Counted from the first letter of the stretch, positions 5,997 through 32,000 are shown. The stretch is DNA of 32,000 nt from Candidatus Pelethomonas sp. (GCA_045658885.1 JAZOVU010000040.1:7062-39061), one strand, 5' to 3'. Notes: a model not told the origin generated them from the letters alone. Numbers and translations are program-made.

Positions 5997-6048
5997 AAAA
6001 AATAAAAAATGAGAAGCGCACCGCACAGTGAACTTCTCATTTTCTTTA
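5997..6048. terminator. Bidirectional intrinsic terminator between convergent trkA and the ABC ATPase gene
   Basis: ATGAGAAGCGCAC (6009-6021) pairs with GTGAACTTCTCAT (6028-6040). An A-run lies upstream and a T-run downstream. Confidence 0.7.
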
Positions 6049-6094
6049 ACTACTTTGACTGTCCTATTTTGTCCATGTGTGTCATCACTCTTGT

Positions 6095-6889: not shown

Positions 6890-6890
6890 C

Positions 6891-7940: not shown

Positions 7941-7987
7941 AAAAACACCACACAGGGCTACATCAAAACGATGCAGCCCCGTCTTCT

Positions 7988-8992
7988 TTAGTCTTCAGGA
8001 TGGAACTTGGAAGCAAGCATAGGAATCGTATCTGCAATGCGCTCACCAACCGTCAGGTCAACTAGACCGATAACGATGAAGTTTTCGTTCTGCACCGCCT
8101 TCATCTGACTGCAAGCAGGATGATTTTTCAGGAAAGTAATCCAGAAATCCGCATCCTCTGCCCCCTCGTAGACACCGAGGACAATCCATTCAGGGTCTGC
8201 GGCAGCAATTTCCTCCCAGCTGACATTCAGCCAAGGGTCAGTCGTATTGTTGATAATATTTGCACCGCCAGCCGTTCGGAAAATGTCTGCCACCAGTGCA
8301 TCACCAGCAGTAAAGGCGGCTTCTTCAGAGGAGTAGGCATCGATATACACGACGCTGACAGGAGCCACATCCGCCATTTGTTCAGCGACAGGTTCAATTT
8401 TTGCTTTCATCTGGGCAACGATTTCTGCGGCGCGTGTTTCTTTGCCGAAAATCTTGCCCATATTGGTAAAGTCGTCGTATACAGACTGTATCTTAGCACC
8501 GTCAATATCGGAAGTCATTGTGTAAGTTCCGATATTGTTCGCAGTGAGAAACTCGTAGGTATAATCAGGAGAACCATTCCAGAACATCATAAAATCAGGT
8601 TCGAGTGCCATAATCATTTCCTGCGAAACCGACCATTCTTCCGTGATACAATGCAGGGAGTCAAAAGCCGCCTTGTACTGGTCGGGAATTACATTTTCCT
8701 GCATCGCATAGCCGACAATGTTCTGCTCCAACCCCAACGCGAGCAACATTTCCGTGGCAGGGCTGGCAAGGGTCACAATACGCTGTGGAATCGTAGCGTA
8801 AGTAAATTCATAGCTCTCGCCTAGAATGACATTTTTCAGTGTGAAATCTTGTGTTCCGGATACTTCGTTCTGTGTATCGCCGTCTGTCTGCGAACCATTA
8901 TTTGCAGGCCCCTCCGTATTGGTGCTACCGCATCCCACCAACAGGCTCATCGTCATCGCTACGACCATGAGAAGCGTCAACAATCGTTTCAT
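7988..8992 (-). CDS. Periplasmic-binding-protein type (BtuF/FhuD-like) substrate-binding lipoprotein
   Basis: Signal peptide plus lipobox (LLVGCGS), 334 aa, first gene of the three-gene importer operon. The ligand cannot be assigned from sequence. Confidence 0.8.
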   Translation of the reverse strand: MKRLLTLLMVVAMTMSLLVGCGSTNTEGPANNGSQTDGDTQNEVSGTQDFTLKNVILGESYEFTYATIPQRIVTLASPATEMLLALGLEQNIVGYAMQENVIPDQYKAAFDSLHCITEEWSVSQEMIMALEPDFMMFWNGSPDYTYEFLTANNIGTYTMTSDIDGAKIQSVYDDFTNMGKIFGKETRAAEIVAQMKAKIEPVAEQMADVAPVSVVYIDAYSSEEAAFTAGDALVADIFRTAGGANIINNTTDPWLNVSWEEIAAADPEWIVLGVYEGAEDADFWITFLKNHPACSQMKAVQNENFIVIGLVDLTVGERIADTIPMLASKFHPED

Positions 8993-9139
8993 AGTATCGT
9001 TCCTTTCTATTTATTTCCGGTACAGCAAGCAGACACTACCGCATGGTGTTTCCGGTCCTTTGCTGCTTGTCCCGGCTATTTTATCATTAAAATACTGACA
9101 AGGGAAGCCACCTAGGGGGATATTCGTTTGCTAAATAGC

Positions 9140-9204
9140 AAAAGAAAAAATGAGAAGCTCACCATACCGTGAACTTCTCATATCTCCGACTGTCACAACA
9201 GTCG
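9140..9204 (-). terminator. Two hairpins downstream of the tRNA; the second is a strong intrinsic terminator
   Basis: CGACTGT-CACA-ACAGTCG at 9187-9204. ATGAGAAGCTCAC (9150-9162) pairs with GTGAACTTCTCAT (9169-9181) and is followed on the minus strand by TTTTTTCTTTT. Confidence 0.7.
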
Positions 9205-9210
9205 TATCTC

Positions 9211-9299
9211 TGGCGCAGCGGGAGGGATTCGAACCCTCGTGCGATTGCTCGCAAACTGATTTCGAGTCAGCCCCGTTATGACCACTTCGATACGCTTGC
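9211..9299 (-). tRNA. tRNA-Ser (anticodon CGA), class II with long variable arm and encoded CCA; the acceptor stem is aberrant
   Basis: The minus strand reads GCAAGCG-TA-TCG-AAGTGGTCATAA-CGG-G-GCTGA-CTCGAAA-TCAGT-TTGCGAGCAATCGCAC-GAGGG-TTCGAAT-CCCTC-CCGCTGC-G-CCA. The anticodon CGA lies at 9264-9262. The T arm, anticodon arm and variable arm fold normally. In the acceptor stem, only 4 of 7 positions pair in the canonical register. Confidence 0.75.
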
Positions 9300-9318
9300 G
9301 TATTTAATTTACTTGTAA

Positions 9319-9347
9319 AGTATAGCATAAAAAAATTAGCTTTGCAA
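9319..9347 (-). promoter_or_regulatory. Promoter for the tRNA-Ser gene
   Basis: On the minus strand: TTGCAA (9347-9342), 17-nt spacer, TATACT (9324-9319). It ends about 20 nt upstream of the tRNA 5' end. Confidence 0.55.
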
Positions 9348-9379
9348 GAGTTTTTTTAAATTTACCAAAAAGTTAAGAA

Positions 9380-9408
9380 TTGACAAGCGCATATCTATAT
9401 GATAGAAT
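9380..9408 (+). promoter_or_regulatory. Promoter for yccF
   Basis: TTGACA (9380-9385), 17-nt spacer, TAGAAT (9403-9408). Confidence 0.55.
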
Positions 9409-9437
9409 TAAAATATAAACACAAAGGAGAGAACTTT

Positions 9438-9794
9438 ATGAAGGTAATCGGAAACATTTTATGGCTTATTTTCACAGGCATTTGGGAAGCGCTTGCGTGG
9501 TTTTTCCTCGGAATCTTTTGGTGCATTACCATAATCGGAATTCCGTTCGGAAAGCAATGCTTCAAGTTTGCAAGCGTGGCATTTTGGCCTATGGGCAAGG
9601 AGATTGACTCGAACTTTGGCAAGCACCCTATCGCAAACATTCTTTGGCTCATCTTCGGTGGCTTGGAGCTTGCGATTTCGTTCTTGGTTGTTGGCATCAT
9701 TTGGTGCATTACAATTCTTGGAATTCCATTCGGAAAGCAATGCTTTAAGCTTTTCAAGCTCGCACTTTGCCCATTCGGCGCTGACGTAAAATAA
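9438..9794 (+). CDS. yccF: YccF-family (DUF307) inner-membrane protein
   Basis: Contains an internal tandem duplication: NILWLIFTGIWEALAWFFLGIFWCITIIGIPFGKQCFKF and NILWLIFGGLELAISFLVVGIIWCITILGIPFGKQCFKL. I place the start at ATG 9438, after an AAAGGAGAG SD, not at 9399. Confidence 0.8.
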   Translation: MKVIGNILWLIFTGIWEALAWFFLGIFWCITIIGIPFGKQCFKFASVAFWPMGKEIDSNFGKHPIANILWLIFGGLELAISFLVVGIIWCITILGIPFGKQCFKLFKLALCPFGADVK

Positions 9795-9796
9795 AG

Positions 9797-9822
9797 AAAA
9801 GGTAGCCTAAGCTACCTTTTTT
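9797..9822. terminator. Bidirectional terminator between yccF and the convergent lipoprotein gene
   Basis: AAAA-GGTAGC-CTAA-GCTACC-TTTTTT. Confidence 0.7.
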
Positions 9823-11077
9823 ATTTGCTTGACGACTCGGTCTTTTCCTTGCCGAGATCTCCGTAAAGGAAATTGTAATCGAGGTCGTTTGGATAAACGC
9901 TTGAAAGAGGCATTCCCTCATAGCGTCCGTGGTCCTTTATTTGATATCCCGATTCGTTTGCTTGGAAATTAGCAATATGCTCTCCGTACAAAATCGAGGT
10001 TGCCGAGGCTTTAAACGTGCCAAAGAAATCCTTGAATTCCTCTTTGTCGTACGCGCCCTCTTCCTTTGGCAATCTCTTTACAAAAACGTTACCGTAGGTG
10101 AAATAATCACCTGCGTTAACGGTTACCTTTTTGCCACCGATTTCAAACGTTCCGCCCTGTGAGAAGAAACGGTTAGCCTTAACCTTGGCAACGTCATTTT
10201 CTTTTAAAAGGGCAGCAGCACTTATCGCATTTTGTGCGCCGGCATTCTTTGGGAACTGTGTATAACAGCCCTGGGGATATGCCTTATCGTCCGAATAATA
10301 CGCATAAATCTCATCGTACGTCATAGTAGGGTCGATAACCTTGTACTCATAACCTTCCTTGCTTTCGATAAAGAGGTTAGTAAGGTCGTCGATTATATCG
10401 TTGCGCTCCTTGATTTCATCCTCGTTAAGAGGCTCCATAACAGTTACCTGCTCGCCCTTGTCGTTAGTTTCCTTAACAAGCTTGTAAACGTTGTTTATAA
10501 TGATAGTTTGGAAGCACATATAGTTCTTTTCGAAAATATCGTCAAGGTCTTCCTTTTCGATTTTTTCACCGTTAGCTCCGAAAAGATGCTCAATTACGAG
10601 CCTTTGCTTCGACTGCATTGTGAAAACCTCGCGCAAGGTCTTTGCCGTAAAGCCGTAAAGGCGCGACTTTTGATTGAACTTTTGCTCGGAGTATCCACCG
10701 TAATAGTTGGTAATTACCGTTACGTTTGACTCGATTGTGTCCTCAATCTCCTTTGTCAGCTTAAGATCGTAAACATCGAACAAAAGCTGAGAGAACATAA
10801 GCATATAAATATCGTTCAAAAAGCTCTGTTGAGTTGTGTCAAGCGCCTGTGCAACGGTAAGACCGCTTTCAAACTTTGCCTCAAGAGAGGTATTTACGCT
10901 TATTTGGTAGGAGTCGAATTGCTTTCTGTTGTGAATGCTCGCAAGATATCTGTAATGGTCTTCCTTGATTTCATACTTACCAAGAGAGAAAACAGTTCTG
11001 TTCGAGCAAGACGAGAAGCAAACCGTTACCGAAACAAGCATACATATTAAAAGAATAAAAGATAAAATCCTTTTCAT
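9821..11077 (-). CDS. Secreted lipoprotein of unknown function (possibly a SurA-N/PrsA-like chaperone without an obvious PPIase domain)
   Basis: Signal peptide plus lipobox (VCFSSCS), 418 aa. It lies directly downstream of mfd, the position often held by prsA-like genes in Firmicutes. The functional call is weak. Confidence 0.5.
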   Translation of the reverse strand: MKRILSFILLICMLVSVTVCFSSCSNRTVFSLGKYEIKEDHYRYLASIHNRKQFDSYQISVNTSLEAKFESGLTVAQALDTTQQSFLNDIYMLMFSQLLFDVYDLKLTKEIEDTIESNVTVITNYYGGYSEQKFNQKSRLYGFTAKTLREVFTMQSKQRLVIEHLFGANGEKIEKEDLDDIFEKNYMCFQTIIINNVYKLVKETNDKGEQVTVMEPLNEDEIKERNDIIDDLTNLFIESKEGYEYKVIDPTMTYDEIYAYYSDDKAYPQGCYTQFPKNAGAQNAISAAALLKENDVAKVKANRFFSQGGTFEIGGKKVTVNAGDYFTYGNVFVKRLPKEEGAYDKEEFKDFFGTFKASATSILYGEHIANFQANESGYQIKDHGRYEGMPLSSVYPNDLDYNFLYGDLGKEKTESSSK

Positions 11078-11137: not shown

Positions 11138-14100
11138 CTATATTTGCTCGATTTCCTTACATTTCTTAATATAGGTCTTTAACAAGTCAACGCTACCGGT
11201 AAGCTCAATATCGCTTGGATCGGTTACGAGCATAATGTAAGGAGCTTTTCCTACACCGCAAATTTTGACGGTGTCAGGCTTAACCTTAGACATTTGATAG
11301 AGAATTCCCATATCAATTTTGTCGGGAAAGAATCGAATTTGCCCACGCATTTGCTCAACTCGCTTGATTTTAGCCATTTGAGCATAGGATTTGGTAATCG
11401 ATGCGCCAAGGAGCGTTTTTGCAGGTGGGGGGAGTGGACCGAAGCGGTCGCAAAGCTCGCTCTCCACATCCTTCAAATCGTCCTCGTTTTCTATGTGAGC
11501 GATTTTCTTGTACATATCCATTCTTTGCGCCGAGGAGCGAATATAGCTCTTTGGCAAGAATGCATCACACGAAAGCGTGATAACGCTCTCGAACTTTTCC
11601 TCGGGCACAATGCCCTTTTCCTCGAGGACTGCCTCGTTTAAAATGCGAATGTATAAATCGTATCCGATGGCTTCCATATGTCCGTGCTGTGCCGAGCCGA
11701 GAATGCTACCCGCACCTCGTATTTCAAGGTCGCGCATTGCAATCTTGAAGCCTGCACCGAATTCGGCAAAATCTCTTATTGCGTTAAGACGCTTTTCGGC
11801 AATCTCGGAGAGCTGCTTGCCTGGACGGTACGTGAAAAACGCATACGCGCGACGGTGGCTTCTTCCAACTCTACCGCGGATTTGGTGAAGCTGAGCAAGT
11901 CCCATTCTGTCTGCGTTTTCGATTATGAGAGTGTTTGCGTTTGGAATGTCGATACCTGTTTCGATAATAGTTGTGCTGACAAGAATATCAACCTCTCCGC
12001 GCACAAGCTCCTGCCAAATATCCTCAATATCCTCACGGTCCATTTGTCCGTGGGCGATTTGAATTCTCGCATTCGGAAACGCCTTGGAAAGTCTAGCTCT
12101 GACGTCGTATATTTTTTCAACATTGTTGTAAAGATAGAACACCTGTCCGCCACGGTGAAGCTCGCGCTTAATGGCATCGTTTATAACGTTTTCGTCATAT
12201 TCGAGCACATAAGACATAACTCCAAGACGGCCACCCGGTGCGTCGTCAAGCACTGACATATCACGAATTCCGCCCATCGCCATGCTAAGCGTTCTCGGAA
12301 TAGGCGTTGCGCTAAGCGACAAAACGTCAACGTCGGGCACTAGCTGCTTGATTTTTTCCTTTTGACCGACACCGAAGCGTTGCTCCTCGTCAATTACGAG
12401 AAGTCCAAGGTCCTTGAACTCGATTTTGCCACTCAAAAGCTTGTGAGTGCCGATAATAATATCGACGTCGCCACGTCTTAAGCGCCTGAGAGTGTTCGCT
12501 TGCTCCTTTGGTGTACGGAAGCGCGAAATCATATCTATGTTGACCCCTGTGCCTGCAAAACGGGCAAGAGCAGTCTGATAATGTTGCATTGCAAGAATGG
12601 TTGTAGGCACTAAAATCGCAACCTGCTTGTTGTTAGCCACCGCCTTCATTGCCGCACGGAATGCAACCTCGGTTTTGCCGTAGCCAACGTCTCCACAAAG
12701 CACTCTATCCATAGGATACGGGCGCTCCATATCGTTTTTAATGTCCTCGATTGCCTCAATTTGGCTCTCCGTTTCGTCAAACTCAAACGAGGAGTCGAAT
12801 TCGCGCTCCATTTGTCCGTCAGGCGCAAAGGAGAAGCCGTCAATTCTTAATCTGCGTGCGTAAAGGTCGATTAGCTCCTTCGCCATTTCCTTTGCGCTCG
12901 CCTTCGCCTTTGAGGTTGCCTTTTTCCAATCGGCACCACCCATTCGGGAGAGCCTTACCTCACCGTCGGAGCTCGTAGCACCGATATATTTCGATACCAT
13001 ATCGAGCTGATCCACGGGCAAAAATAGCTTATCCGTGCCGGCATATTGAATAGTTATATAATCCCTGTGCGCACCGCATACAAGCAAATTTTCAATTCCG
13101 AGATACTTACCGATACCGTACTTTTCGTGTACAACGGCATCTCCGACATTAAGGTCGGCATACGATAAAATCTTCTCGCCCGCATTCTTTGCGTGCTTTG
13201 AGCGCTTTTTGGACTTTTTAGCCGTGCGCTCGCTCCTTGACGATAGCACCATAACAACGGATTTTGAGTCAAAAAGCTCGTATCCGTCGGGGAACGTGTC
13301 GCTTAAAACGCAAACCGTGCCCTCGCTTGGGCAGTCGCCCTCGCTCCTTGATGCAAAGGCAGGCACATCGTAATCGCAAAGCGCTCTTACCGCTTCCTTA
13401 ACCTCGGCATCGGTTCGGCATACAAGAGAACACGAATATTTATTTTCACAGTAGTATTTTAATTGCTCAATTATCGTATTTATCGACACGTCAGAGCCCG
13501 AAATGCCCCTTGCCTTGAAATCGTAGATTCCGCCGGCGTTGCCTCGGTAGCTGATTGCAAACTTGTCAAGATTGATAATTTGCTCGTTTTCAAAAAACGC
13601 CTCAAGCTCCTTCTCACCGTCGCTATAAAGGGCGTATTCCTCGCTTACAAGGCAAGCACCAACGAGCGCGTCCGCAAGCTCCCTGCTTAGCTCAAGCGCA
13701 TTTTTCGCCTTCGCGCGCACTCCTGCAATATCGCAAACGATTGATGCAGGCGAATTTGCAAAATAATCGAGAAGTGATTTCTTTTGCGGATAAATAAGAG
13801 AAATAAATTTATCAAAGAACGAATTTGAGGTTTTTGCCTCTATTGAAAACAGCTCGTGGCGAAGCTCCTTTTTCGCCTCGTCGTCTCTTGCAATTTCAAG
13901 TAAGCTCGACACTTGGTCGCGGATTTTCTCAATTTTGTCTTCGTCTGCAATGATTTCCTTTGATGGAGTAATCGAAAAACGCTCGATAGGTCTTGTAGCT
14001 CTTTGCGTTATCGGGTCAAACAAGGTAAGACGGTCGATTTCGTCGCCAAAAAGCTCTATTCTTATCGGTAAGGCGTCGCCCTCGCCCTGTCCGTCTATTT

Positions 14101-15745: not shown

Positions 15746-16690
15746 ATGGCAGATAAAATAGCAACAAGAGAAGCATACGGCAACGCACTTGCCGAGCTTG
15801 GCTCAGTATATGAGAATGTGGTAGTTCTTGATGCAGACCTTGCAGCAGCTACCAAGACGGGAGTTTTCAAAAAGAAATTCCCCGAGAGATTTTTTGATTG
15901 CGGTATTGCCGAGAACAATATGTTCGGTGTAGCCGCAGGACTTTCAACCACAGGCAAGATTCCTTTTGCAAGCACCTTTGCTATGTTTGCGGCAGGAAGA
16001 AGCTTTGAGCAAATCAGAAACTCAATCGGTTATCCACACCTCAACGTAAAAATCGGCGCAACTCACGCGGGAATTACCGTTGGTGAGGACGGTGCAACTC
16101 ATCAGTGTAACGAGGATATCGCGCTTATGCGTACAATCCCCGGAATGGTTGTAATCAATCCGTCCGATGCAGTTGAGGCAAGATGCGCAGTTGAGGCTGC
16201 AATCAAGCACGAAGGACCTGTTTATATGCGCTTTGGACGCTTGGCTGTGTCCGTAATTAACGATAAGCCTGACTACAAGTTTGAGATCGGCAAGGGAATT
16301 ACTCTCGTTGACGGAAGCGATATTACAATCGTTGCAACTGGAATTATGGTTGAACAGGCACTCTTGGCAAGCGAAATGCTCGCAAGTGAGGGAATTAGCG
16401 CAGGCGTTGTAAATATTCACACAATCAAGCCACTTGATACACAGCTTCTTATTGCCTTGGCTCAGCAAACAGGCGCAATGGTTGTAACCGAGGAGCATAG
16501 CGTAATCGGTGGACTTGGAAGCGCAGTATGCGAGGCGCTCGCAGGAGTTTGTCCTATCCCTGTTGTAAGACACGGTATAGAGGATGTTTACGGTAAATCA
16601 GCACCTGCAAAGGAGCTTCTTGAATACTATAAGCTCAATGCGCTCGGTATTGTTGAAAAGGCAAAGCAGGCTCTTGCAATGAAACACTGA
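15746..16690 (+). CDS. Transketolase, C-terminal (pyrimidine-binding + C-terminal domain) subunit
   Basis: 314 aa with the FDCGIAENNM motif. It begins 10 nt after the N-terminal subunit gene. Confidence 0.9.
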   Translation: MADKIATREAYGNALAELGSVYENVVVLDADLAAATKTGVFKKKFPERFFDCGIAENNMFGVAAGLSTTGKIPFASTFAMFAAGRSFEQIRNSIGYPHLNVKIGATHAGITVGEDGATHQCNEDIALMRTIPGMVVINPSDAVEARCAVEAAIKHEGPVYMRFGRLAVSVINDKPDYKFEIGKGITLVDGSDITIVATGIMVEQALLASEMLASEGISAGVVNIHTIKPLDTQLLIALAQQTGAMVVTEEHSVIGGLGSAVCEALAGVCPIPVVRHGIEDVYGKSAPAKELLEYYKLNALGIVEKAKQALAMKH

Positions 16691-19410: not shown

Positions 19411-20154
19411 ATGGCAAACGACGGAATATCCATTGATAGAATAATATCAAGGCTTGACGAATATTTAAGCAAAAACGACCAAGAGGGCGCAAAAAGGCAT
19501 CTTCATTATTGGCTTGACGAGGCGATAAATGCCAAAAACGGCAGAGTAGAGCTTCTTTTAAGAAACGAGCTTATGGGAATTTACCGCAAGAACGGCAATC
19601 GCTCCCTTGCTCTTGAAAATGCCGAGGGAGCTCTTGCAAAAATCAAGGAGCTGGGAATTGAGAGTCAGGTCGGCTCGGCAACGACTTATCTAAACGTTGC
19701 AACCGTGTATAAATCCTTTGGAATGGCAAAGGAGGCATTACCAATATTCGAAAAAGCTAAGGCAATTTATGAGTCAAGCCTTGAAAAAAACGACACAAGG
19801 CTCGCAGGGCTTTATAATAATATGGCGCTTGCCTTGGTTGACGAGGGGATTTTCGACAGGGCATATGAGCTTTATGATAAGGCGCTCAAAATTACAAACG
19901 GTACGCTTGAAACGGCAATAACGCACCTTAATATTGCAAGCGCAAAAGAGGCAGAGCTAGGACTCGAGGACGCTGATGAGCAAATACAAAAGCGACTTGA
20001 AAGCGCACGCGAGATTTTGGAAAATCACGAAAACCAAGACGGCTACTACGCCTTCGTTTGCGAAAAGTGTGCGGGCGTTTTCGGCTATTACGGACACTTT
20101 CTTTACGAGCAAGAATTAAACGAAAGGGCAAGGAAAATTTATGAAGGGAATTGA
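19411..20154 (+). CDS. Tetratricopeptide-repeat protein
   Basis: TPR-like A/Y/L periodicity (ATTYLNVATVYKSFGMAKEALPIFEKA, LYNNMALALVDEGIFDRAYELYDKAL). ATG 19411 has proper spacing from GGAG. The ATG at 19405 abuts the SD. Confidence 0.65.
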   Translation: MANDGISIDRIISRLDEYLSKNDQEGAKRHLHYWLDEAINAKNGRVELLLRNELMGIYRKNGNRSLALENAEGALAKIKELGIESQVGSATTYLNVATVYKSFGMAKEALPIFEKAKAIYESSLEKNDTRLAGLYNNMALALVDEGIFDRAYELYDKALKITNGTLETAITHLNIASAKEAELGLEDADEQIQKRLESAREILENHENQDGYYAFVCEKCAGVFGYYGHFLYEQELNERARKIYEGN

Positions 20155-21079
20155 GCTATCCGAAGCGTTTTATAACGAATACGGCAGAGCGATGCTAGAG
20201 AATTTTCCGCATCTGTCGGATAAAATCGCGGTAGGTGTGTGTGGAAGTGGCTCGGAATGCTTCGGCTACGATGATGAAATTTCTCGCGACCACGATTTTG
20301 AACCGGGCTTTTGTATTTTCTTGCCTGACGAGGAAATTATTGATTCCAAAACTGAATTTCAGCTTGAGCGCGCTTATACGAAGCTCCCAAAGGAGTTTAA
20401 GGGATATAAAAGAAGTGTTTTGAAGCCTGTTGGCGGTGCGCGCCACGGAGTGGTTAGAATAAGCGACTTTTTAATGGATAAAACAGGCACTAAAAACGCG
20501 GAGCTTTCTCCTCGCGAATGGCTTACAATCCCTGAGCAAGCGCTTGCCGAGGCAACTAACGGAAAAATCTTTTTCGACGGTCTTGGCGACTTGACCAAAA
20601 TAAGAGAGCGCCTTTCGTATTTGCCCGAGGGCGTAAGGCGCAAAAAGCTTGCGGGAAATCTTCTCATTATGGCACAGTCGGGACAGTATAACTACTCGCG
20701 ATGCGTGCTAAGGGGCGAAACCGCATCGGCACAGCTCGCTGTTTTTGAGCTTGTAAAAAGCGCGCTTAATGTGATATTTTTGCTAAATAAGCGATACATC
20801 CCCTACTATAAATGGACCTTTAGGGCACTTCGTGAGCTTCCGTTGCTCTCGCATCTTTATACGAAGCTCGAATATCTTTTGACAAGCTCGAATGAAGGAA
20901 ACGAGGCAACGAAGAAGCAAGCGTTAATCGAGGAAATTTGCTCAGAGATAATAGAGGAGCTTAAGGCACAGGAGCTAACCTGTATTGACACGCTTGACCT
21001 CGAGCCTCACGCATACTCTGTAAACGATAAAATCACCGACCCAACGCTTCGCAATCTTCACATTCTTTGTGCAATTTAG
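20141..21079 (+). CDS. Nucleotidyltransferase-fold protein (DUF4037-like)
   Basis: VCGSGSECFGYDDEISRDHDF matches the G-S-x(n)-D-x-D pol-beta NTase motif. It overlaps the TPR gene by 14 nt. The family name is from memory. Confidence 0.6.
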   Translation: MKGIELSEAFYNEYGRAMLENFPHLSDKIAVGVCGSGSECFGYDDEISRDHDFEPGFCIFLPDEEIIDSKTEFQLERAYTKLPKEFKGYKRSVLKPVGGARHGVVRISDFLMDKTGTKNAELSPREWLTIPEQALAEATNGKIFFDGLGDLTKIRERLSYLPEGVRRKKLAGNLLIMAQSGQYNYSRCVLRGETASAQLAVFELVKSALNVIFLLNKRYIPYYKWTFRALRELPLLSHLYTKLEYLLTSSNEGNEATKKQALIEEICSEIIEELKAQELTCIDTLDLEPHAYSVNDKITDPTLRNLHILCAI

Positions 21080-25809: not shown

Positions 25810-25811
25810 TC

Positions 25812-25841
25812 AAAAAAGAACTCCAAACGGAGTTCTTTTTT
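25812..25841 (+). terminator. Intrinsic terminator ending the seven-gene operon
   Basis: AAAAAA-GAACTCC-AAAC-GGAGTTC-TTTTTT. Confidence 0.75.
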
Positions 25842-25898
25842 GTTGTTTTTTAAAAAATTATTGCAAAATTTGTAGCCAAAAAGGATAGTTCAAGGTGA

Positions 25899-25927
25899 TT
25901 GACAAAACGAGCAGAACATGATATAAT
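25899..25927 (+). promoter_or_regulatory. Consensus sigma-A promoter of the RNase III-like/XRE operon
   Basis: TTGACA (25899-25904), exactly 17 nt, TATAAT (25922-25927). Confidence 0.65.
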
Positions 25928-25933
25928 GAAACC

Positions 25934-26141
25934 ACAAGAAGGCGGTATGAATATTTAAACGGCTGGACATAAAATGAGAATATTTGATTTTAACTATGCA
26001 AGTGGTTAATTTCAAATGGTAGCGATTTATGTAATGCATTTTAACTATTTGTGCCCGATGAAAGCGCACGGGATACGTGGGCTTTGTCGGGCTATACTTA
26101 TACCTTCTTGTAGAAATTACTATAAGGAGGTTGTTTTTATT
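25934..26141 (+). promoter_or_regulatory. Unusually long (~200 nt) 5' leader with long-range pairing
   Basis: ACAAGAAGG (25934-25942) is perfectly complementary to CCTTCTTGT (26103-26111). GCCCGA (26053-26058) pairs with TCGGGC (26087-26092), enclosing CACG-GGATA-CGTG. The AAGGAGG SD is at 26124-26130. Confidence 0.35.
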
Positions 26142-27239
26142 ATGAACAACGAAACATTGGAATTTATCCAAGAACAAATAGGGTATAAATTTAAAAACGA
26201 AGATTTGCTGGTGCAAGCTTTTACAAGACGTTCGTATGCGAATGAAAACGGTGGTGAAGATAACGAAGTATTAGAGTTTATCGGTGATACCGCGCTTGAT
26301 TTTATTGTCGTCAAAATACTTACAGAAAGATATGGGTATTTTGCGAGTGAATGCGATGATTATGATCCCGAAGAAGAATGCAACGAATTTATTTCCGAAC
26401 GAGACGAGGGGCAGCTCACAGAATTAAAAAAGAATTTAGTAAAAAGAGAAACTCTTGCGTCAAGAATTGATGAATTCGGATTTGCGGAGTACTTGATCAT
26501 GGGAAAGGGCGATGAAGACAATAACGCAAATCAAGAAGCTTCAGTAAAAGAAGATTTGTTTGAGGCTATCATTGGTGCTGTTACTCTCGACAGTTCTTGG
26601 GATAATGAAAAGATGCAAGAAGTCGTCGACATTATGCTTAACCCAGATGAGTATTTGGATGCTCAAGATAATGATGATGAAAAAGAAGAAAATTATGTAA
26701 GCTTAATTCAAGAATGGGTTTCTAAAAAGTATAAATGTGTGCCACGGTATATATTCATTGAAGAAAACGACATTTGGCGTGCGCGAGGTGAGTATGATAC
26801 GATTGATGATTATAATTATCACGGGTACGATGAAAAACATGCGTGTGTTTTGAAACTTGGTAGCTTTGATAAAAAATTTCTGTCTTTGGGGCACAGCAAA
26901 AAAAGGGCAAGACTAAACGCTTGCGTTCTGGCGTATAAGTATTTAAGGGAACACAATCTTTTTTATCTGCCTATCGATGAAATCGGAGAGCCTGATGTTT
27001 CAAAAGCAATCAATCAATTGCAAGAACTTCATCAAAAAAAATATATAGGTGAGCCATGGTATGACTTTTCGGAAGCATATGATGATAACGGTAATCCAAT
27101 TTGGCATTGTGAATGTCATGTAAGCGGAAGAGATACTTATTGGTGGAGAGATTGCTCATCAAAAAAACAAGGTAAAAAACTTGTTGCCTATGATATGCTT
27201 TGCGATATCCTCGGCTGGGAGGAAGATGATGAGGCTTAA
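26142..27239 (+). CDS. RNase III-family protein with an internal acidic/Cys insert and two C-terminal dsRBD-like modules (accessory paralogue)
   Basis: 365 aa counted from ATG 26142. Carries the NEVLEFIGD signature and KEDLFEAIIGA, the two RNase III catalytic acid clusters. Has two dsRBD-like C-terminal helices: GHSKKRARLNACVLAYKYL and CSSKKQGKKLVAYDMLCDIL. The gene is clearly A+T-rich (about 30% G+C in a 60-nt sample I counted). Confidence 0.7.
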   Translation: MNNETLEFIQEQIGYKFKNEDLLVQAFTRRSYANENGGEDNEVLEFIGDTALDFIVVKILTERYGYFASECDDYDPEEECNEFISERDEGQLTELKKNLVKRETLASRIDEFGFAEYLIMGKGDEDNNANQEASVKEDLFEAIIGAVTLDSSWDNEKMQEVVDIMLNPDEYLDAQDNDDEKEENYVSLIQEWVSKKYKCVPRYIFIEENDIWRARGEYDTIDDYNYHGYDEKHACVLKLGSFDKKFLSLGHSKKRARLNACVLAYKYLREHNLFYLPIDEIGEPDVSKAINQLQELHQKKYIGEPWYDFSEAYDDNGNPIWHCECHVSGRDTYWWRDCSSKKQGKKLVAYDMLCDILGWEEDDEA

Positions 27240-27429
27240 AGAATTACGTGCAGAAAAGGGAGCAACACAAAAGGAAGTTGCTGAGTTTATTTGTTGTTCT
27301 CCGCTGGTATATTCGCGTTATGAAAGAGAAGAGCGTGAACCGGATATAGATTCGCTTTGCAGACTCGCAGATTATTTCGGAGTAACCATTGACTATTTGG
27401 TTGGACGAGAAAAAACAATTAAACAATAA
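27226..27429 (+). CDS. XRE/Cro-C1-family helix-turn-helix protein
   Basis: MRLKELRAEKGATQKEVAEFICCSPLVYSRYEREEREPDIDSLCRLADYFGVTIDYLVG is a textbook HTH_3 pattern. Its start (ATG 27226 or 27229) lies inside the 3' end of the RNase III-like gene, after a GGGAGGAAG SD. Confidence 0.85.
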   Translation: MMRLKELRAEKGATQKEVAEFICCSPLVYSRYEREEREPDIDSLCRLADYFGVTIDYLVGREKTIKQ

Positions 27430-27430
27430 T

Positions 27431-27476
27431 AAAAAAATCCGATTAGGAGTCGCAAGAAACCTAATCGGATTTTTAT
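27431..27476 (+). terminator. Intrinsic terminator of the RNase III-like/XRE operon
   Basis: ATCCGATTAGG (27437-27447) pairs with CCTAATCGGAT (27460-27470), followed by TTTT. Confidence 0.75.
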
Positions 27477-27495
27477 ATTAGCATCTCAATTTAGC

Positions 27496-27528
27496 GAAAA
27501 AAGGAGATTCTTGTGAATCTCCTTTTTG
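27496..27528. terminator. Second, bidirectional terminator hairpin; on the minus strand it ends the candidate ncRNA
   Basis: AAGGAGATTC (27501-27510), TTGT loop, GAATCTCCTT (27515-27524). Six As lie on one side and five Ts on the other, so the minus strand reads stem + TTTTTTCGC. Confidence 0.7.
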
Positions 27529-27766
27529 GTCTGAGTGGAACCTTGCGTAAGCTCGGCGTGTCCGCCCTCCGAGTAGCAAACAAGACTTCTCGCTCGGCAG
27601 AGCGAGGTCGCAGGCGACAGAACTTGCGCTACCCGGTCAAGTCGCATAGTCAAAAACGACAAATAATCGCAGATTTTTGCCATTTTCTCCTTGCTTTGTT
27701 GACTTCGCGGCGTAAAAACCGTCGTTTAGAAGGTTTTTAGTTGCTCACCCTACCACCCCAAGACCG
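27528..27766 (-). ncRNA. Candidate structured ncRNA of unknown class (~240 nt plus terminator)
   Basis: My hand count gives about 58% G+C over 27531-27660, against about 39% for 27661-27780 and about 30% in a 60-nt sample of the adjacent RNase III-like gene. Perfect local stems are CTCGG/CCGAG (27552-27573), CTCGCT/AGCGAG (27589-27606) and GTCG/CGAC (27607-27618). The ends can pair (27753-27765 with 27528-27538, and 27743-27748 with 27547-27552). The last helix needs a G-U pair that exists only in the minus-strand transcript. The only ORF here reads through the terminator. Confidence 0.4.
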
Positions 27767-27781
27767 ATTTTTATATTTTTC

Positions 27782-27809
27782 TAGTGCTAAATAGTGCTTA
27801 TTGGTGCTA
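27782..27809. repeat. Three direct TAGTGCT-type repeats at exact 10-bp phasing
   Basis: TAGTGCTA (27782), TAGTGCTTA (27792), TGGTGCTA (27802). A TTGACA hexamer on the minus strand (27818-27813) lies immediately beside them. Confidence 0.6.
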
Positions 27810-27866
27810 TTCTGTCAACCAAAGTGTATATTTTCGTGCTCTCGTGTACTACTGTTTCCATGTAGT

Positions 27867-27898
27867 CCACTTCTCGAAGTGGTCAAGCATGTGGTCAA
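27867..27898. repeat. 16-bp palindrome overlapping two GTGGTCAA direct repeats
   Basis: CCACTTC-TC-GAAGTGG (27867-27882). GTGGTCAA at 27879-27886 and 27891-27898. Confidence 0.55.
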
Positions 27899-27983
27899 AA
27901 AACAAGTCCTGCGTATCCGTTTATTGTGATACACAGGGCTTCGTTTTTCGTTTACCGTACCCCAAAATTGGGGGCGCAAAAAC

Positions 27984-28006
27984 CGACGAAAAAGGTCGAC
28001 GAAAAA
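27984..28006. repeat. Tandem CGACGAAAAA repeats (13-bp phasing), preceded by a CCCCAAAATTGGGG inverted repeat (27960-27974)
   Basis: CGACGAAAAA at 27984-27993 and 27997-28006. Confidence 0.5.
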
Positions 28007-28030
28007 ATGAAGATAATTTAATAGAATCTA

Positions 28031-28081
28031 TTGACAGTAACGCTAATAACTGATATAATATCGTTAGTAACCGTTAGTAAC
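28031..28081 (+). promoter_or_regulatory. Consensus promoter of the AlbA_2/AEP-helicase operon with a tandem palindromic operator over the predicted start site
   Basis: TTGACA (28031-28036), 17 nt, TATAAT (28054-28059). CGTTAGTAAC is repeated perfectly in tandem (28062-28071 and 28072-28081), and each unit contains the GTTA-G-TAAC palindrome. A partial related copy GTAACG lies in the spacer (28037-28042). Confidence 0.6.
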
Positions 28082-28098
28082 GAAGTTGGAGGCAAAAT

Positions 28099-29388
28099 AT
28101 GTTGGAAGATAAGAATATCGAGTTTAAAAGGGAATATGTTGAGGATATAAAAAACACGCTTGTTGCTTTTGCAAATACTGATGGTGGTAATCTTTATATC
28201 GGAATTGACGATGACGGCAATGCTGTTGAAATCAATAATTTTGACGGTGTTATATTACAGATACCACACGTGATCCGAGATGCGATCAAGCCGGATCTTG
28301 CAATGTTTTGCGATATTACTGTGGAAACCGTTCAAAACAAAAAGGTTGTCAAAATCACCGTCAATCGCGGTACTGCCCGTCCTTATTATTTGGCGGCTAA
28401 AGGTATTCGTCCGGAAGGTGTATATGTGAGACAGGGGGCATCATCCGTTCCTGCTTCCGAGAGTGCAATTCTTTCTATGATACGAGAAACAGCTGGGGAT
28501 AGCTATGAGGAGGCGCGCTCGCTTATTCAGGAATTAACCTTCAATGAAGCAAATATTGTTTTTGAAAATAAGCAAATTCCTTTCGGAGACGCACAGAAGA
28601 GAAGCCTTGGCTTGATTGGCGAGGACGGAACGTATACCAATCTTGCGTTGTTGCTTTCCGATCAGTGTACTCATACTGTAAAAATTGCAGTTTTTGAAGG
28701 CGAGCAAAAGACGGTATTTAAGGATAGACGAGAATTTAGCGGTTCGCTGTTAAAGCAGCTTAACGATGCGTATCAGTTTATAGATCAGTTTAATCATACA
28801 CACTCACATACGGAAGGTCTTTACCGTGTTGATAAAAGAGCATATCCTGCGGAAGCAATCAGAGAGGCACTTTTGAACGCTATTGTTCACAGAGAATATA
28901 GCTTTTCAGCGAGCACACTAATCAGTATTTTTGATAACCGAATAGAGTTCGTATCCATAGGTGGACTTGCACACGGTATTTCACAAAGTGATATATTGCT
29001 CGGCATCTCAATTGCTCGAAATAAAAAGCTCGCAGATGTGTTCTATCGTTTGCATTTGATTGAGGCTTACGGCACAGGCATGCCCAAAATCATGGAGTCT
29101 TATAAAGAATACGGAATTGTGCCACATATAGAAATATCGGCCAATGCATTTAAAATTGCGTTACCTAATAATACAAATGCGACTGTTAAAGAAACAAAGG
29201 TTGAGTTGACCGAAAACGAGCAAGGCGTGCTTTCTGTACTGAAAGAAGGAATTAAGTCGCGTCCTGAAATTCAAAAGGCGCTTGGCTTTTCGCAAACGAC
29301 TACGATAGTAACAATATCAGCTTTAATTGATAAAGGCTTGATTATAAAGGTCGGAAATGGGAACAAGACGAAATATAAATTGATATAA
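28099..29388 (+). CDS. AlbA_2 (Schlafen-type) domain + HATPase_c_4-like ATPase + C-terminal winged-helix protein (often annotated as putative DNA/RNA-binding transcriptional regulator)
   Basis: N-terminus NIEFKREY...LVAFANTDGGNLYIGIDDDG (AlbA_2 pattern). Mid-protein AIREALLNAIVHREY (the pattern I recall from RecG-C-terminal-like ATPase family members). C-terminal LTENEQGVLSVLKEGIKSRPEIQKALGFSQTTTIVTISALIDKGLI (wHTH). GGAGG SD 6 nt upstream. Confidence 0.7.
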   Translation: MLEDKNIEFKREYVEDIKNTLVAFANTDGGNLYIGIDDDGNAVEINNFDGVILQIPHVIRDAIKPDLAMFCDITVETVQNKKVVKITVNRGTARPYYLAAKGIRPEGVYVRQGASSVPASESAILSMIRETAGDSYEEARSLIQELTFNEANIVFENKQIPFGDAQKRSLGLIGEDGTYTNLALLLSDQCTHTVKIAVFEGEQKTVFKDRREFSGSLLKQLNDAYQFIDQFNHTHSHTEGLYRVDKRAYPAEAIREALLNAIVHREYSFSASTLISIFDNRIEFVSIGGLAHGISQSDILLGISIARNKKLADVFYRLHLIEAYGTGMPKIMESYKEYGIVPHIEISANAFKIALPNNTNATVKETKVELTENEQGVLSVLKEGIKSRPEIQKALGFSQTTTIVTISALIDKGLIIKVGNGNKTKYKLI

Positions 29389-29402
29389 AAAGAGGCTGTA
29401 AA

Positions 29403-32000
29403 ATGTATGAGAAGCTATATCGTGAGCTTTTGCTACGTTACAACGCATTAGAGGGTGAAAATAAGCGGCTCTCGGAGGAAAATGCGCGGTTGCGACTGCA
29501 ATTTGGCTTTGCGAATGCATTCAATGAAAATACTGAGATACTAGCAATCGCCCCCACTTCTGTCAACAAATACAGCTCTTCAAAGGAAAAGATCGAGTTA
29601 TTCCGTTCGTTGTTTTGTGGCAGGGAAGATGCGTTTGCGAGACGGTGGCAAAGCACGACGATCGGAAAAAGCGGATATCAGCCCGTGTGTGAAAATGAAT
29701 GGGCGGAAGGTTTGTGCGATAAAAGAAAATATAAGTGCGCAAACTGTCCCAATCGAGTGTTAAAATCCTTAACTGATGAAGATATTTACAAGCATCTTGA
29801 GGGAAAGGATGCTCTTGCTCGGGATGTGATAGGAATTTATCCTATGCTGCAGGATGAAACTTGCCATTTCCTGTGTGCCGACTTTGATGATGACTTGTTT
29901 GAAATGGATGTTTCCGCTTTCAGAGAGGTTTGTAAGGAATTAGGGATACCCGTGTACGTGGAACGATCTCGCTCCGGAAATGGCGCCCATTCATGGATAT
30001 TCTTCGAGTCGCCTATTGCTGCCGCTACCGCACGCAAATTAGGAAGTGGTATTTTGACCCAAGCGATGGAGAAGCGCGGAGAGTTGTCATTCAAGTCGTA
30101 TGACAGATTGTTTCCAAACCAAGATACAATGCCTAACGGTGGTTTTGGAAATCTTGTTGCTTTGCCTTTACAAGGACTGGCAAGAAAAAGTGGAAACAGT
30201 GTTTTTGTTGATGAGTATTTTCAACCATATGAAGATCAATGGGCGTATCTTTCTGCTGTAAAAAGATTGAGTGCAGATGCGGTTGAAGCTTTGGTTATGT
30301 CTTTCGGTAAGGATGGTGAGCTTGGTAAACTCATTAGCGAATCCGAAAGTAAGCCGTGGGAAACTAAAAAGAAGATCAAAATTACACGAAGTGATTTTCC
30401 TATGATGCTGAATGTTGTTCGTGCAAATATGCTTTATATTCCTACGGTAGATTTATCCGCGAATGCGAAGAATCAGATCAAACGTCTTGCGGCATTTAAA
30501 AATCCCGATTTTTACCGTGCTCAGGCAATGAGATTACCAATATACGATAAGCCGCGGATCATATGCACAGCGGACATCGCAGAAGATTATATTGCCATTC
30601 CGCGCGGTTGCGAGGAAGCACTTTGCAATCTGCTCGATGAAGCAGACGTATCATATGCAATCGAAGATAAAACCAATTCAGGAGAGATTATACCCGTTAC
30701 TTTTAACGGTGAGTTGCGTGAAGAACAGCGGCCTGCGGCAGACGCACTATTGGAACAAGATACGGGTGTTCTATCTGCAACAACGGCGTTCGGTAAGACT
30801 GTCATTGCCTCGTATATGATCGGGAAAAGAAAAACAAACACCTTGATTCTCGTACATACACAAGCTTTGATGACACAATGGAAAAAGTCTCTCGAAAGCT
30901 TTCTGAAGTTTGACATAATACCGCCCGAGGAAAAGAAGGGCAAAGGTCGCAGGAAGGTGTGGTCTCCCATTGGCATTCTCGGCGCAGGGAAGGATACTTT
31001 ACACAGCGTTGTCGATATTGCTGTTATGCAGTCACTTATTAACGGTGATGAGGTAAAAGAGCTTGTTCGTAATTACGGAATGATTATTGTTGACGAGTGC
31101 CATCACGTTTCTGCGGTCAATTTTGAGATGATACTCAAGCACGTCAATGCAAAATATGTTTATGGACTAACCGCTACACCCACAAGGCAAGATGGACATC
31201 ATCCTATCATATTTATGCAATGCGGTGCGATCCGATACCGCGTAGATGCTAAGGAGCAAGCTGAGAAGCGAAGCTTTGAGCATTATCTCGTGCCGAGGTT
31301 TACCAATACGCGCTGCCCAGGCGAGGGTAAGCCGAGCATCACGGATATTTACAAGAAATTATCTGAAAATGAGCTCCGAAACAATATGATTGTTTTCGAT
31401 GTTGTTGAAGCATCGAAAAACGGAAGAAATCCTATTGTGCTGACCGAACGCCGAGAGCATGTTGCGTTGCTTGCGGAACGGCTTTCCTGTTATTGCAAAA
31501 ACATTATTCAACTCGTGGGAACCGCTTCCGCAAAGGAGCGCAGAGAAACGATGGAAAGGCTTGAAGCTATCCCCAGTGATGAATCGGTTGTCATAGTTGC
31601 AACGGGTAAATACGTAGGAGAAGGCTTCGACTATCCTCGGTTGGATACGTTATTCCTTGCGTTGCCGATTGCGTGGAAGGGTAAAGTCGCACAGTATGTC
31701 GGCAGACTCCACAGAAATTATGAAGGCAAAACCGAGGTGCAGGTCTATGATTATGTGGATATCCATATTCCTGTACTTGAAAGAATGTATCAAAAGCGTG
31801 TGAAAAGTTATTCTGCTATTGGATATAAAACAAAGCTTTTGTCAAATGCCAATGCATCTCCTGACTTGATCTATGACGGAAAATCTTTTTATCACGGATT
31901 TTGTAATGATTTGCAAAATGCTAAAAGCGAAGTTCTGATTGTGAGTCCGTTTATGAGAAAAAGCAGAATCACAAGTCTTATGAAAATCCTTAAGTCGGAT
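29403..32000 (+). CDS. Giant fusion protein: coiled coil + Cys-rich element + archaeo-eukaryotic primase (PrimPol-like) domain + SF2 (DEAD/DEAH, ResIII-like) helicase + start of a probable PLD-like C-terminal domain; runs off the right edge
   Basis: Open frame of exactly 866 codons from ATG 29403 (AGAGG SD 7 nt upstream) to the window end; it is missing from the track only because it is open-ended. AEP motifs checked in frame: CADFDDD (DxD, 29880-29894), SGNGAH (29973-29990) and YDRLFPNQD. Cys cluster: CENEWAEGLCDKRKYKCANCP. Helicase motifs: TAFGKT (GKT, about 30792), VDECHH (about 31092), GLTATPTRQDG and QYVGRLHR. The C-terminal EVLIVSPFM resembles the first strand of PLD-like nuclease domains. 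Confidence 0.8.
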   Translation, partial: MYEKLYRELLLRYNALEGENKRLSEENARLRLQFGFANAFNENTEILAIAPTSVNKYSSSKEKIELFRSLFCGREDAFARRWQSTTIGKSGYQPVCENEWAEGLCDKRKYKCANCPNRVLKSLTDEDIYKHLEGKDALARDVIGIYPMLQDETCHFLCADFDDDLFEMDVSAFREVCKELGIPVYVERSRSGNGAHSWIFFESPIAAATARKLGSGILTQAMEKRGELSFKSYDRLFPNQDTMPNGGFGNLVALPLQGLARKSGNSVFVDEYFQPYEDQWAYLSAVKRLSADAVEALVMSFGKDGELGKLISESESKPWETKKKIKITRSDFPMMLNVVRANMLYIPTVDLSANAKNQIKRLAAFKNPDFYRAQAMRLPIYDKPRIICTADIAEDYIAIPRGCEEALCNLLDEADVSYAIEDKTNSGEIIPVTFNGELREEQRPAADALLEQDTGVLSATTAFGKTVIASYMIGKRKTNTLILVHTQALMTQWKKSLESFLKFDIIPPEEKKGKGRRKVWSPIGILGAGKDTLHSVVDIAVMQSLINGDEVKELVRNYGMIIVDECHHVSAVNFEMILKHVNAKYVYGLTATPTRQDGHHPIIFMQCGAIRYRVDAKEQAEKRSFEHYLVPRFTNTRCPGEGKPSITDIYKKLSENELRNNMIVFDVVEASKNGRNPIVLTERREHVALLAERLSCYCKNIIQLVGTASAKERRETMERLEAIPSDESVVIVATGKYVGEGFDYPRLDTLFLALPIAWKGKVAQYVGRLHRNYEGKTEVQVYDYVDIHIPVLERMYQKRVKSYSAIGYKTKLLSNANASPDLIYDGKSFYHGFCNDLQNAKSEVLIVSPFMRKSRITSLMKILKSD

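Follow-up and report, generated by a model that had tools for sequence, protein, structure and literature searches.

The accessory region and its genes

The DNA analyzed here is a 32,000-nucleotide stretch of Candidatus Pelethomonas sp. (GCA_045658885.1, JAZOVU010000040.1:7062-39061), referred to below as the window and numbered from its first nucleotide. The host chromosome is of Clostridia type, and the first 25 kb carry ordinary chromosomal genes encoding NuoF-like, TrkH, FecCD, Mfd and Gfo/Idh/MocA proteins and an amidohydrolase. Our subject is the 6-kb stretch from 25842 to 32000. Past the terminator at its left end, four plus-strand genes are arranged as two pairs: an RNase III-like nuclease gene with a gene for an XRE-family helix-turn-helix (HTH) protein, then a gene for a Schlafen-type AlbA_2 protein with a gene that fuses an AEP primase-polymerase to a helicase. 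An earlier reading of this sequence, hereafter the original prediction, had joined the RNase III-like/XRE pair, an intergenic RNA, a set of repeats and the AlbA_2/AEP-helicase pair into one conflict system. The genes and domains that it described were confirmed by open reading frame (ORF) calls and a Pfam profile search. The features of the region are as follows.

25811-25842, plus strand: intrinsic terminator of the upstream chromosomal amidohydrolase gene, a 14-bp stem followed by a T-run (terminator scan)
25899-25927, plus strand: consensus sigma-70 promoter of the RNase III-like/XRE cassette, TTGACA-17-TATAAT, 12/12 match, extended TG
25934-26141, plus strand: conserved structured 5' leader RNA of the RNase III-like gene (folding, covariation, nhmmer)
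26142-27239, plus strand: RNase III-like nuclease, 365 amino acids (Pfam Ribonucleas_3_3, 1.2e-21; dsrm, 2.5e-8)
27223-27429, plus strand: XRE-family HTH protein, 68 amino acids (HTH_3, 3.7e-15), overlapping the RNase III-like gene by 17 nt
27427-27480, no strand assigned: hairpin terminator closing the RNase III-like/XRE cassette; inverted repeat I1 with 21-nt arms, 95% complementary, flanked by A/T runs
27498-27537, minus strand: tRNA-Pro(GGG) 3' remnant (positions 66-76, CACTCAGACCA, at 27537-27527) and terminator; exact 11-nt match to the tRNA of viral contig L172
27498-27527, minus strand: perfect 13-bp terminator hairpin I4 directly after the tRNA-Pro remnant (inverted-repeat scan)
27538-27749, no strand assigned: G+C-rich, hairpin-dense spacer of 212 nt between two tRNA-Pro fragments (fold z-scores)
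27750-27900, no strand assigned: att-type repeat A; on the minus strand, 27762-27750 correspond to tRNA-Pro(GGG) positions 31-43, the anticodon loop and 3' stem
28031-28081, plus strand: promoter of the AlbA_2 operon (28031-28059, 12/12 match, extended TG) and a tandem CGTTAGTAAC x2 direct repeat (28062-28081)
28099-29388, plus strand: AlbA_2 (Schlafen-type)/HATPase_c_4/C-terminal winged-HTH (wHTH) protein, 429 amino acids (Pfam)
29403-32000 (window end), plus strand: AEP-TOTE primase-polymerase with XPB/Rad25-like superfamily 2 (SF2) helicase, first 866 of ~957 amino acids

The terminator-like hairpin claimed after the upstream gene was located at 25811-25842 and is the left edge of the accessory DNA. 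The accessory nature of the region is supported, as are the two textbook TTGACA-17-TATAAT promoters, each found where a pair begins. The shift in base composition stands for one part only: the RNase III-like/XRE pair is AT-rich (G+C 0.37), but the AlbA_2/AEP part (0.40-0.44) lies inside the range of the remaining window. Similarly, the count of seven CGN against two AGR arginine codons in the first 90 codons of the AEP gene is correct, but whole-gene ratios (34:20 for the AEP gene, 49:33 for chromosomal Mfd) do not separate the region from the chromosome, and arginine codon usage was dropped as an island marker because these ratios overlap those of chromosomal genes. Neither megablast of 25842-32000 nor sensitive blastn of 27430-28100 found a match in phage and plasmid collections, which means that the region is no known plasmid or phage. 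Exact-sequence look-ups of three window proteins gave no match either.

The two gene pairs are not linked in related loci

Two samples of 85 homologous loci each were compared, one for the AEP protein with its helicase and the PLD nuclease of full-length relatives (L001-L082, from tblastn, and L168-L170, from called-gene tables) and one for the RNase III-like protein (L083-L167). In the first sample, the surrounding 10 kb are free of RNase III-like genes at every locus. In the reciprocal sample, an AEP gene occurs near the RNase III-like gene in a single lineage, directly downstream and convergent in L084, L085, L090 and L095 and ~7 kb upstream in L091. The lineage is of Lachnospiraceae type, and its AEP-TOTE helicase-PLD gene is 40% identical to that of the window and has no close AlbA_2 partner. 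We read this lineage as a chance meeting of two defence-island residents and not as a system. L084 and L085 also carry NTP_transf_2 pairs, SMC_N/MComp1 genes and SNF2/DUF3670 genes nearby.

The similarity blocks are equally separate. Nucleotide similarity to other RNase III-like loci covers 25873-27409 only, and similarity to AlbA_2/AEP relatives begins at 27750. Both flanks are highly variable across the 85 RNase III-like loci, where the recurrent neighbours are HTH_17, TnpV, DUF6809, AAA-ATPase/PDDEXK_9, type I HsdR and ParA/ParB genes and, occasionally, AlbA_2; these are contexts of mobile elements and accessory islands.

The idea of a single system draws on the adjacency of the parts in the window, on the nucleic-acid-directed nature of all four, on the other lineage (adjacent in four loci, distant in L091), and on AlbA_2/HATPase_c_4 genes near RNase III-like genes in four further loci. 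Against these stand the absence of RNase III-like genes from all AEP-helicase-PLD loci, the divergence of the other lineage's AEP gene, its convergent orientation where adjacent and its want of an AlbA_2 head, an intergenic RNA found in no relative, a tRNA-Pro att scar and two terminators between the pairs, and a separate promoter for each pair. We consider a single system highly improbable. The original prediction had itself named a lack of linkage between the two pairs across homologue neighbourhoods as the observation that would count against it, and this is essentially what those neighbourhoods revealed.

Because the RNase III-like gene is absent near AEP loci, its neighbours vary and the similarity blocks are separate, we treat the units as independent. 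On balance we lean towards reading the region as a mosaic of three such units, the third being an AlbA_2/AEP-helicase-PLD anti-phage or anti-plasmid module. Unit 1 (25873-27480) would be a self-contained RNase III-like/XRE cassette. Unit 2 (27498-~27900) would comprise an old tRNA-Pro 3' end with its terminator, the 212-nt spacer and the att repeat. Unit 3 (28031 to beyond 32000) would be the first cargo operon of an integrated element, in which the AlbA_2 head is co-transcribed with an effector.

A predicted tRNA-Pro(GGG) integration scar

The roughly 300 bp of repeats and palindromes described by the original prediction are present in 27750-28098; we read them instead as an att repeat, a promoter and a likely operator. 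Copies of repeat A that are 87-93% identical lie 5' of the cassette in L002 and L175-177 and 3' of the cassette in L001 and L168, and a diverged variant, B, sits on the side opposite to repeat A. Read on the minus strand, every copy of repeat A ends in CTTGGGGTGGTAG..., and the copy in L002 runs on as ...AGGCCGCAAGTTCAAGTCTTGTCACTCAGACCA, taking in the whole tRNA-Pro 3' half, with a terminator after it. The repeat copies thus hold graded truncations of one tRNA-Pro 3' half. Scanning viral contigs with the repeat motif found an intact tRNA-Pro(GGG) in L172, plus partial copies, and in viral contig L171 a tyrosine integrase lies 140 bp from the same partial tRNA-Pro. Integrases are also present 8 kb downstream in L001. 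Since repeat A begins in the tRNA-Pro anticodon loop, and given the evidence from L172 and L171, the repeat is an att-type junction, and 27498-~27900 is most plausibly the scar of a site-specific integration into a tRNA-Pro(GGG) gene. Phased TAGTGCT (x3) and GTGGTCA (x2) repeats adjoin the tRNA core in repeat A and look like recombinase arm sites.

Earlier assignments of 27750-28098, as a leader of the AlbA_2 gene and then as a cassette-array repeat, were abandoned because the tRNA-Pro homology fits better. In L001, the downstream att repeat is followed by at least seven more GTGGTCA-type repeats (13300-13540), beyond which lie a gene for a 411-aa protein that matches nothing in Pfam and an HNH_4 gene. 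L002 contains, just 5' of its att repeat and intact cassette, a deleted second AlbA_2/AEP cassette (7323-8147), of which an AlbA_2 3' end, a 5' portion of the AEP gene and a C-terminal stretch of the helicase are left; this remnant suggests tandem accretion and decay of cassettes. ARAGORN called no tRNA or tmRNA anywhere in the window, and an Rfam tRNA match above gathering score (36.6 bits) was obtained at 9214-9299 on the minus strand.

The G+C-rich spacer within unit 2 corresponds to the convergent structured RNA of the original prediction. Its terminator is present, and 27486-27750 folds better than shuffled sequences, with z-scores of -5.2 (minus strand) and -3.9 (plus strand), the former being partly due to the terminator hairpins. 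The claim of a conserved RNA goes no further: the spacer has no homologue in the loci compared (L001-L174) or in the phage and plasmid collections, and no Rfam match at E <= 10. It is not a conserved component of anything. Identities as a tmRNA, a tRNA intron or a group I intron were rejected or set aside in the absence of a model match or homologue. A 65-aa ORF with an AGGAG site lies inside the spacer (27486-27683, minus strand) and runs through the terminator hairpin; having no homologue, and extending through that hairpin, it has no support as a small-protein gene.

The AEP-helicase-PLD protein

The window holds all but the C-terminal end of the AEP protein. Its N-terminal part matches Pfam PF22548 (AEP-TOTE) with 334.8 bits and E = 3.5e-100 over profile positions 1-229 of 230, and ResIII, DEAD and Helicase_C are also matched. 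Full-length relatives of ~957 aa add a C-terminal PLDc_2 nuclease. The conserved motifs include CADFDD and SRSGNGAH in the AEP domain, AFGKT and DECH in the helicase, and, in the relatives, HxKx4Dx6GSxN in the PLD domain. The AEP domain matches the PADLOC profile for CRISPR-associated PrimPol, PDLC01465, at 1.3e-89. Matches in the PDB are XPBII, Rad25, CAPP (7nqd/7nqf; E = 1e-12) and 7clg (6e-10), in our reading the type IV restriction enzyme SauUSI. The PLD domain matches the PADLOC profiles MkoB and MkoC (Mokosh) and DrmC (DISARM), and the helicase matches type IV restriction profiles; these matches (mREase_IV, MkoB, MkoC, DrmC) range from 1e-8 to 1e-12. The family is large, with at least 582 confirmed stretches when one genome per species was scanned, and spans Bacillota, Bacteroidota, Desulfobacterota, Verrucomicrobiota, Planctomycetota and other phyla.

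The AlbA_2 gene and its pairing with the effector

The operon of AlbA_2/ATPase/wHTH and PrimPol-helicase genes was found as predicted, with both ORFs, their domains and the shared strand. Between the two genes in the window lies a 14-nt gap that holds no promoter, which implies co-transcription. An AlbA_2 gene likewise lies 14-15 nt 5' of the AEP gene in all five close relatives compared (L001, L002, L168, L169 and L170; 78-93% nucleotide identity). The pair lies within defence islands there, in contexts that differ among the five: the neighbours include restriction-modification (RM) genes, Mrr, Vsr/Dcm/Z1/DUF4420, HNH, several Dcm methylases with a reverse transcriptase, or an AraC regulon. 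The CGTTAGTAAC x2 repeat follows directly after the -10 box, at the expected transcription start, and is identical in L001 and L002; from its position it is a probable operator.

Across the 85 AEP-helicase-PLD loci, the sole recurrent neighbours are two classes of ATPase at position -1 on the same strand. AlbA_2/HATPase_c_4 proteins occupy it in ~13 loci, some of them, in Bacteroidota relatives, only 20-26% identical to the window copy. AAA_14/DUF4143 ATPases occupy it in ~11, including L003, L006, L008, L010, L017, L034, L058, L061 and L079; the one tested, from L003, matches the PADLOC candidate PDC-S01. Other genes directly 5' of the AEP gene (RhuM, Abi_2, XamI, XhoI, AbiEii, Fic and Eco57I) are typical defence-island genes.

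The AlbA_2 protein is found in far more database clusters than the AEP protein (>120 at >=87% identity), and two clusters of its homologues supplied eight further loci, L175-L182. There, a block corresponding to 27750 (or 27997) to 29395-29402 of the window is 89-91% identical and carries the att core and arm repeat as well as promoter and AlbA_2 gene. Similarity to the window stops 7-14 nt past the AlbA_2 stop codon. In place of the AEP gene, a RecQ-like helicase and a DprA-like protein follow, which match PADLOC PsyrT (E = 2e-230) and PsyrA (E = 4e-88); the AlbA_2 gene and these two successors are found at ~6001-10400 of the loci. Defence against phages has been demonstrated for PsyrTA, a toxin-antitoxin pair (10.1101/2022.05.11.491447). 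Because the AlbA_2/att block is the same, the AEP-helicase-PLD gene occupies a slot held elsewhere by the validated PsyrTA system, and this is the strongest contextual argument that it may be a defence effector. The two cargoes share their position behind a ~90%-identical AlbA_2 head, promoter and att block, and both are helicase-based. They differ in that the RecQ-like helicase and DprA-like protein of PsyrTA (RqlHI) are unrelated to the window proteins, and the window carries no PsyrTA genes.

The same observations bear on two other explanations of the AEP gene. As the replicase of an integrated plasmid-like or satellite element, it would recall the AEP primase-helicase fusions that are classic mobile-element replicases; PHROGs places its parts in 'primase' and 'DNA helicase' families, it lies inside an element integrated at tRNA-Pro, and the phased GTGGTCA and TAGTGCT repeats nearby, with at least seven GTGGTCA copies in L001, could be origin iterons. 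The helicase, however, is an XPB/Rad25/RadD-like SF2 enzyme and not of the SF3, SF4/DnaB or PriCT-linked kind, and an intact PLD nuclease is fused to it. PsyrTA replaces the gene behind the same head and att block, no integrase, partition or Rep partner recurs in the 85 loci, the closest AEP relatives are CRISPR-associated PrimPols, and the repeats adjoin the tRNA core in the manner of recombinase arm sites. We regard the replicase explanation as unlikely.

A more serious contender, though one to which we give a clear minority weight, is that the AEP-helicase-PLD protein is a stand-alone defence or restriction-like enzyme and AlbA_2 only a backbone or regulatory gene of a cargo hotspot. Some 60 of the 85 AEP-helicase-PLD loci lack both kinds of upstream ATPase, the similarity break just after the AlbA_2 stop codon is what a hotspot boundary would produce, and the wHTH of the head, with the tandem repeat at its own promoter, suggests a transcription factor. 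What speaks for a partnership is the recurrence of divergent AlbA_2/HATPase_c_4 proteins at the same -1, same-strand position in Bacteroidota, far from this element, the co-transcription implied by the promoterless gap, and the second ATPase class in the same position, which suggests a partner that is required but exchangeable. We retain the AlbA_2 and AEP-helicase-PLD operon as a probable defence module, judged from its domains and context.

Relation to known systems

TOTE conflict systems were reportedly predicted by Aravind, Iyer and Burroughs in 2022. Their name denotes TPR, OB, TBP and Effector components (PMC12458937). The window protein shares with them a full-length, high-scoring PF22548 AEP domain fused to a DEAD/ResIII helicase. 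No TPR-OB gene was found in 25.8-32 kb, within 10 kb in L001, L002, L168 and L169 (Pfam tables), or in 33 adjacent upstream genes of related loci, nor did one recur as a partner in the 85 loci; no TBP family was reported in those same searches. The partners here are AlbA_2/HATPase_c_4 or AAA_14/DUF4143 ATPases in place of the TOTE core genes. Judged by sequence, the AEP domain is a TOTE-family member, but the locus falls outside the TOTE system definition.

CAPP (7nqd/7nqf; PADLOC PDLC01465 and PDLC01101) provides the closest solved AEP structure and has a homologous PrimPol domain. In contrast to CAPP, the AEP described here forms one protein with an SF2 helicase and a PLD nuclease and has no cas genes nearby; neither the window nor the tables of genes around relatives list any Cas family. 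SauUSI-type enzymes likewise combine an SF2 translocase and a PLD-family nuclease in one polypeptide, the PLD domain of the present family being seen in full-length relatives. Their domain order is different, and the protein described here has an extra N-terminal zinc-finger and AEP domain; neither the window protein nor the precomputed domains of 120 relatives include a modified-base reading domain (DUF3427/SRA-like).

AEP primase-polymerases that act with helicases on mobile elements are also known from the Thermus ICETh2 Ppol/Hel pair, whose Ppol limits foreign DNA uptake (PMC7693054), and from the pAgo-associated AgaPP (PMC11724360). The combination of primase-polymerase, helicase and mobile element is common to all three, but ICETh2 Ppol/Hel and AgaPP are encoded by separate genes, belong to other AEP clades, use PriCT/DUF3987-type helicases and have no PLD nuclease. 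The label 'undescribed system' thus needs qualifying: the AEP domain is already covered by Pfam PF22548 and a PADLOC PrimPol profile, and what holds is that PADLOC contains no fitting system model.

The RNase III-like/XRE cassette

The nuclease and its XRE partner are as the original prediction described them, a double-stranded RNA (dsRNA) nuclease with two modules resembling the dsRNA-binding domain (dsRBD) and a small HTH protein. The two dsRBD-like modules are C-terminal, and the catalytic motifs are intact: E45-F-I-G-D49 (EFIGD) and E137-D-L-F-E141 (EDLFEAIIGA) are invariant across 22 sequences. Against TIGR02191, the rnc equivalog, the protein scores 137.5 bits where the cut-off is 166.25, and the match spans residues 10-210 only. 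Because this score is under the cut-off, and because the protein has 365 residues and two dsRBD-like modules, the gene is not housekeeping rnc. It shares with rnc the catalytic motifs, a dsRBD and a structured 5' leader before the gene. Housekeeping RNase III, by comparison, has ~220-230 residues and one dsRBD; the window protein occurs in mobile contexts and is coupled to XRE, and its leader is unrelated and uncatalogued.

The family yields 2068 matches at E <= 0.001; the members listed have 331-400 residues, and the named examples are from Clostridia and Lachnospiraceae. The XRE partner is restricted to the subclade closest to the window (identity of at least 50%; 10 loci). With its promoter, structured leader, nuclease, small XRE repressor and terminator, the RNase III-like/XRE pair is an autonomous cassette.

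Three side observations concern the surroundings of these genes. The window (20141-21079) and L083 (1-813) each have a DUF4037 gene ~5 kb 5' of the RNase III-like gene, which may be residual synteny of related genomes. In L145, the RNase III-like gene is followed directly by a tRNA-Ser(CGA) gene (4772-4860, minus strand), a hint that members of this family reside at tRNA-linked islands as well. A conserved-looking RNA 3' of many RNase III-like genes proved to be a spurious cluster of G+C-rich ORFs, unrelated to the window spacer.

A candidate cis-regulatory leader RNA

Sequence similarity among the RNase III-like loci begins well 5' of the ATG, at ~25873, and the leader that precedes the gene had been missed by the original prediction. 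It consists of a long hairpin with an TTATGCAAGTG apex, a second hairpin, and then a hairpin that sequesters the Shine-Dalgarno (SD) sequence, followed by a U-run just before the ATG. The minimum free energy of 25934-26150 has z = -8.0. RNAalifold on alignment A4, which comprises 20 non-redundant leaders, placed 34 pairs in five helices, and compensatory changes are seen at 20 of these pairs. In this structure 95.5% of cells are paired, compared to 42-52% in slid controls, and the covariation score is 0.479 compared to 0.08-0.15 in those controls; none of 500 shuffles reaches the observed value. Helices 3-5 each show three to five pair types.

A hidden Markov model (HMM) of the leader, run with nhmmer, found it 5' of 79 of the 80 RNase III-like genes with upstream sequence, and had no match among the loci retrieved by way of the AEP helicase, the tRNA motif or the AlbA_2 protein. 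In L095 a second copy (16152-16315, plus strand; E = 5e-23) lies 6 kb 3' of the RNase III-like gene, and we suspect that it belongs to another, fragmentary gene of the same kind. Rfam 15 has no leader match at gathering score, and only noise at E <= 10, across 25.8-28.2 kb, nor does Rfam match the sequence 5' of the RNase III-like gene in five other loci. As a candidate for a new family of cis-regulatory RNAs, the leader is well supported.

An alternative helix of 9-14 bp can form in 15 of the 20 representatives between the 5' arm of the SD hairpin (TTATGCCTTYT) and the extreme 5' end of the leader (ARRGGCRTAA). The two helices are mutually exclusive and have the architecture of a switch. E. 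coli RNase III cleaves its own 5' leader, and by analogy we infer that the RNase III-like nuclease may regulate itself negatively through its leader. In the intact leader, the 5' end would pair with the anti-SD strand and leave the ribosome-binding site free. Cleavage of the long hairpin by the nuclease would release the anti-SD strand, allowing the SD hairpin/terminator to close and expression to be switched off.

Proposed action of the AlbA_2/AEP-helicase-PLD module

In the mechanism that we propose, nucleic acid, and perhaps the CGTTAGTAAC x2 operator, would be bound by the AlbA_2 head, which would license the effector or direct it to its target. Translocating along foreign DNA, the effector would cut it through the PLD domain, and the primase-polymerase would act on the unwound strand. 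Gene content, intact domains, conservation of the pair, genomic context, att homology and covariation in the leader are observed here; the biochemical steps and the protective phenotype are what we infer from them.

Several points weigh against the mosaic reading and the functions assigned within it. The searchable literature holds no experiment on, and no mention of, the AEP-TOTE/PF22548/AEP-helicase family, no system-level model in PADLOC fits the AlbA_2 and AEP pair, and it is not explained what an AEP domain would do in immunity. AlbA_2 could be a functional partner open to exchange, or it could be no more than a conserved flank of a cargo hotspot, and the latter would tell against a two-gene module. 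The tRNA-Pro matches in the window are short, at 13 and 11 nt, and appear convincing mainly by their position and because relatives have longer copies. Relatives also supply the limits of the element, as the window stops before the PLD domain, the downstream att copy, the intact tRNA and any integrase. For the leader, a single subclade split accounts for part of the covariation signal, and the autoregulation model is a deduction only.

A wider interpretation is also conceivable, and we hold it more tentatively than the mosaic itself. AlbA_2/GHKL-like/wHTH proteins and, in other lineages, AAA_14/DUF4143 ATPases may be exchangeable heads that sense for or license DNA-directed immune effectors of different kinds. 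AEP/helicase/PLD proteins would be one of these kinds, which would put a primase-polymerase to direct use in innate immunity against phages or plasmids. Separately, the RNase III-like gene with its leader may be a new self-regulating dsRNA-processing module of mobile elements in gut Clostridia.

The case shows that adjacency within an accessory region is weak evidence for one system. If the AlbA_2 and AEP-helicase-PLD pair protects its host, it would be a widespread defence module, present in at least 582 stretches from many phyla and predicted from domains only, and one would have to ask how a primase-polymerase contributes to immunity. The occurrence of the AlbA_2 head before PsyrTA as well points to a general class of partners or regulators for defence effectors, and this class could help to annotate the abundant, unexplained AlbA_2/HATPase_c_4 and AAA_14/DUF4143 genes.

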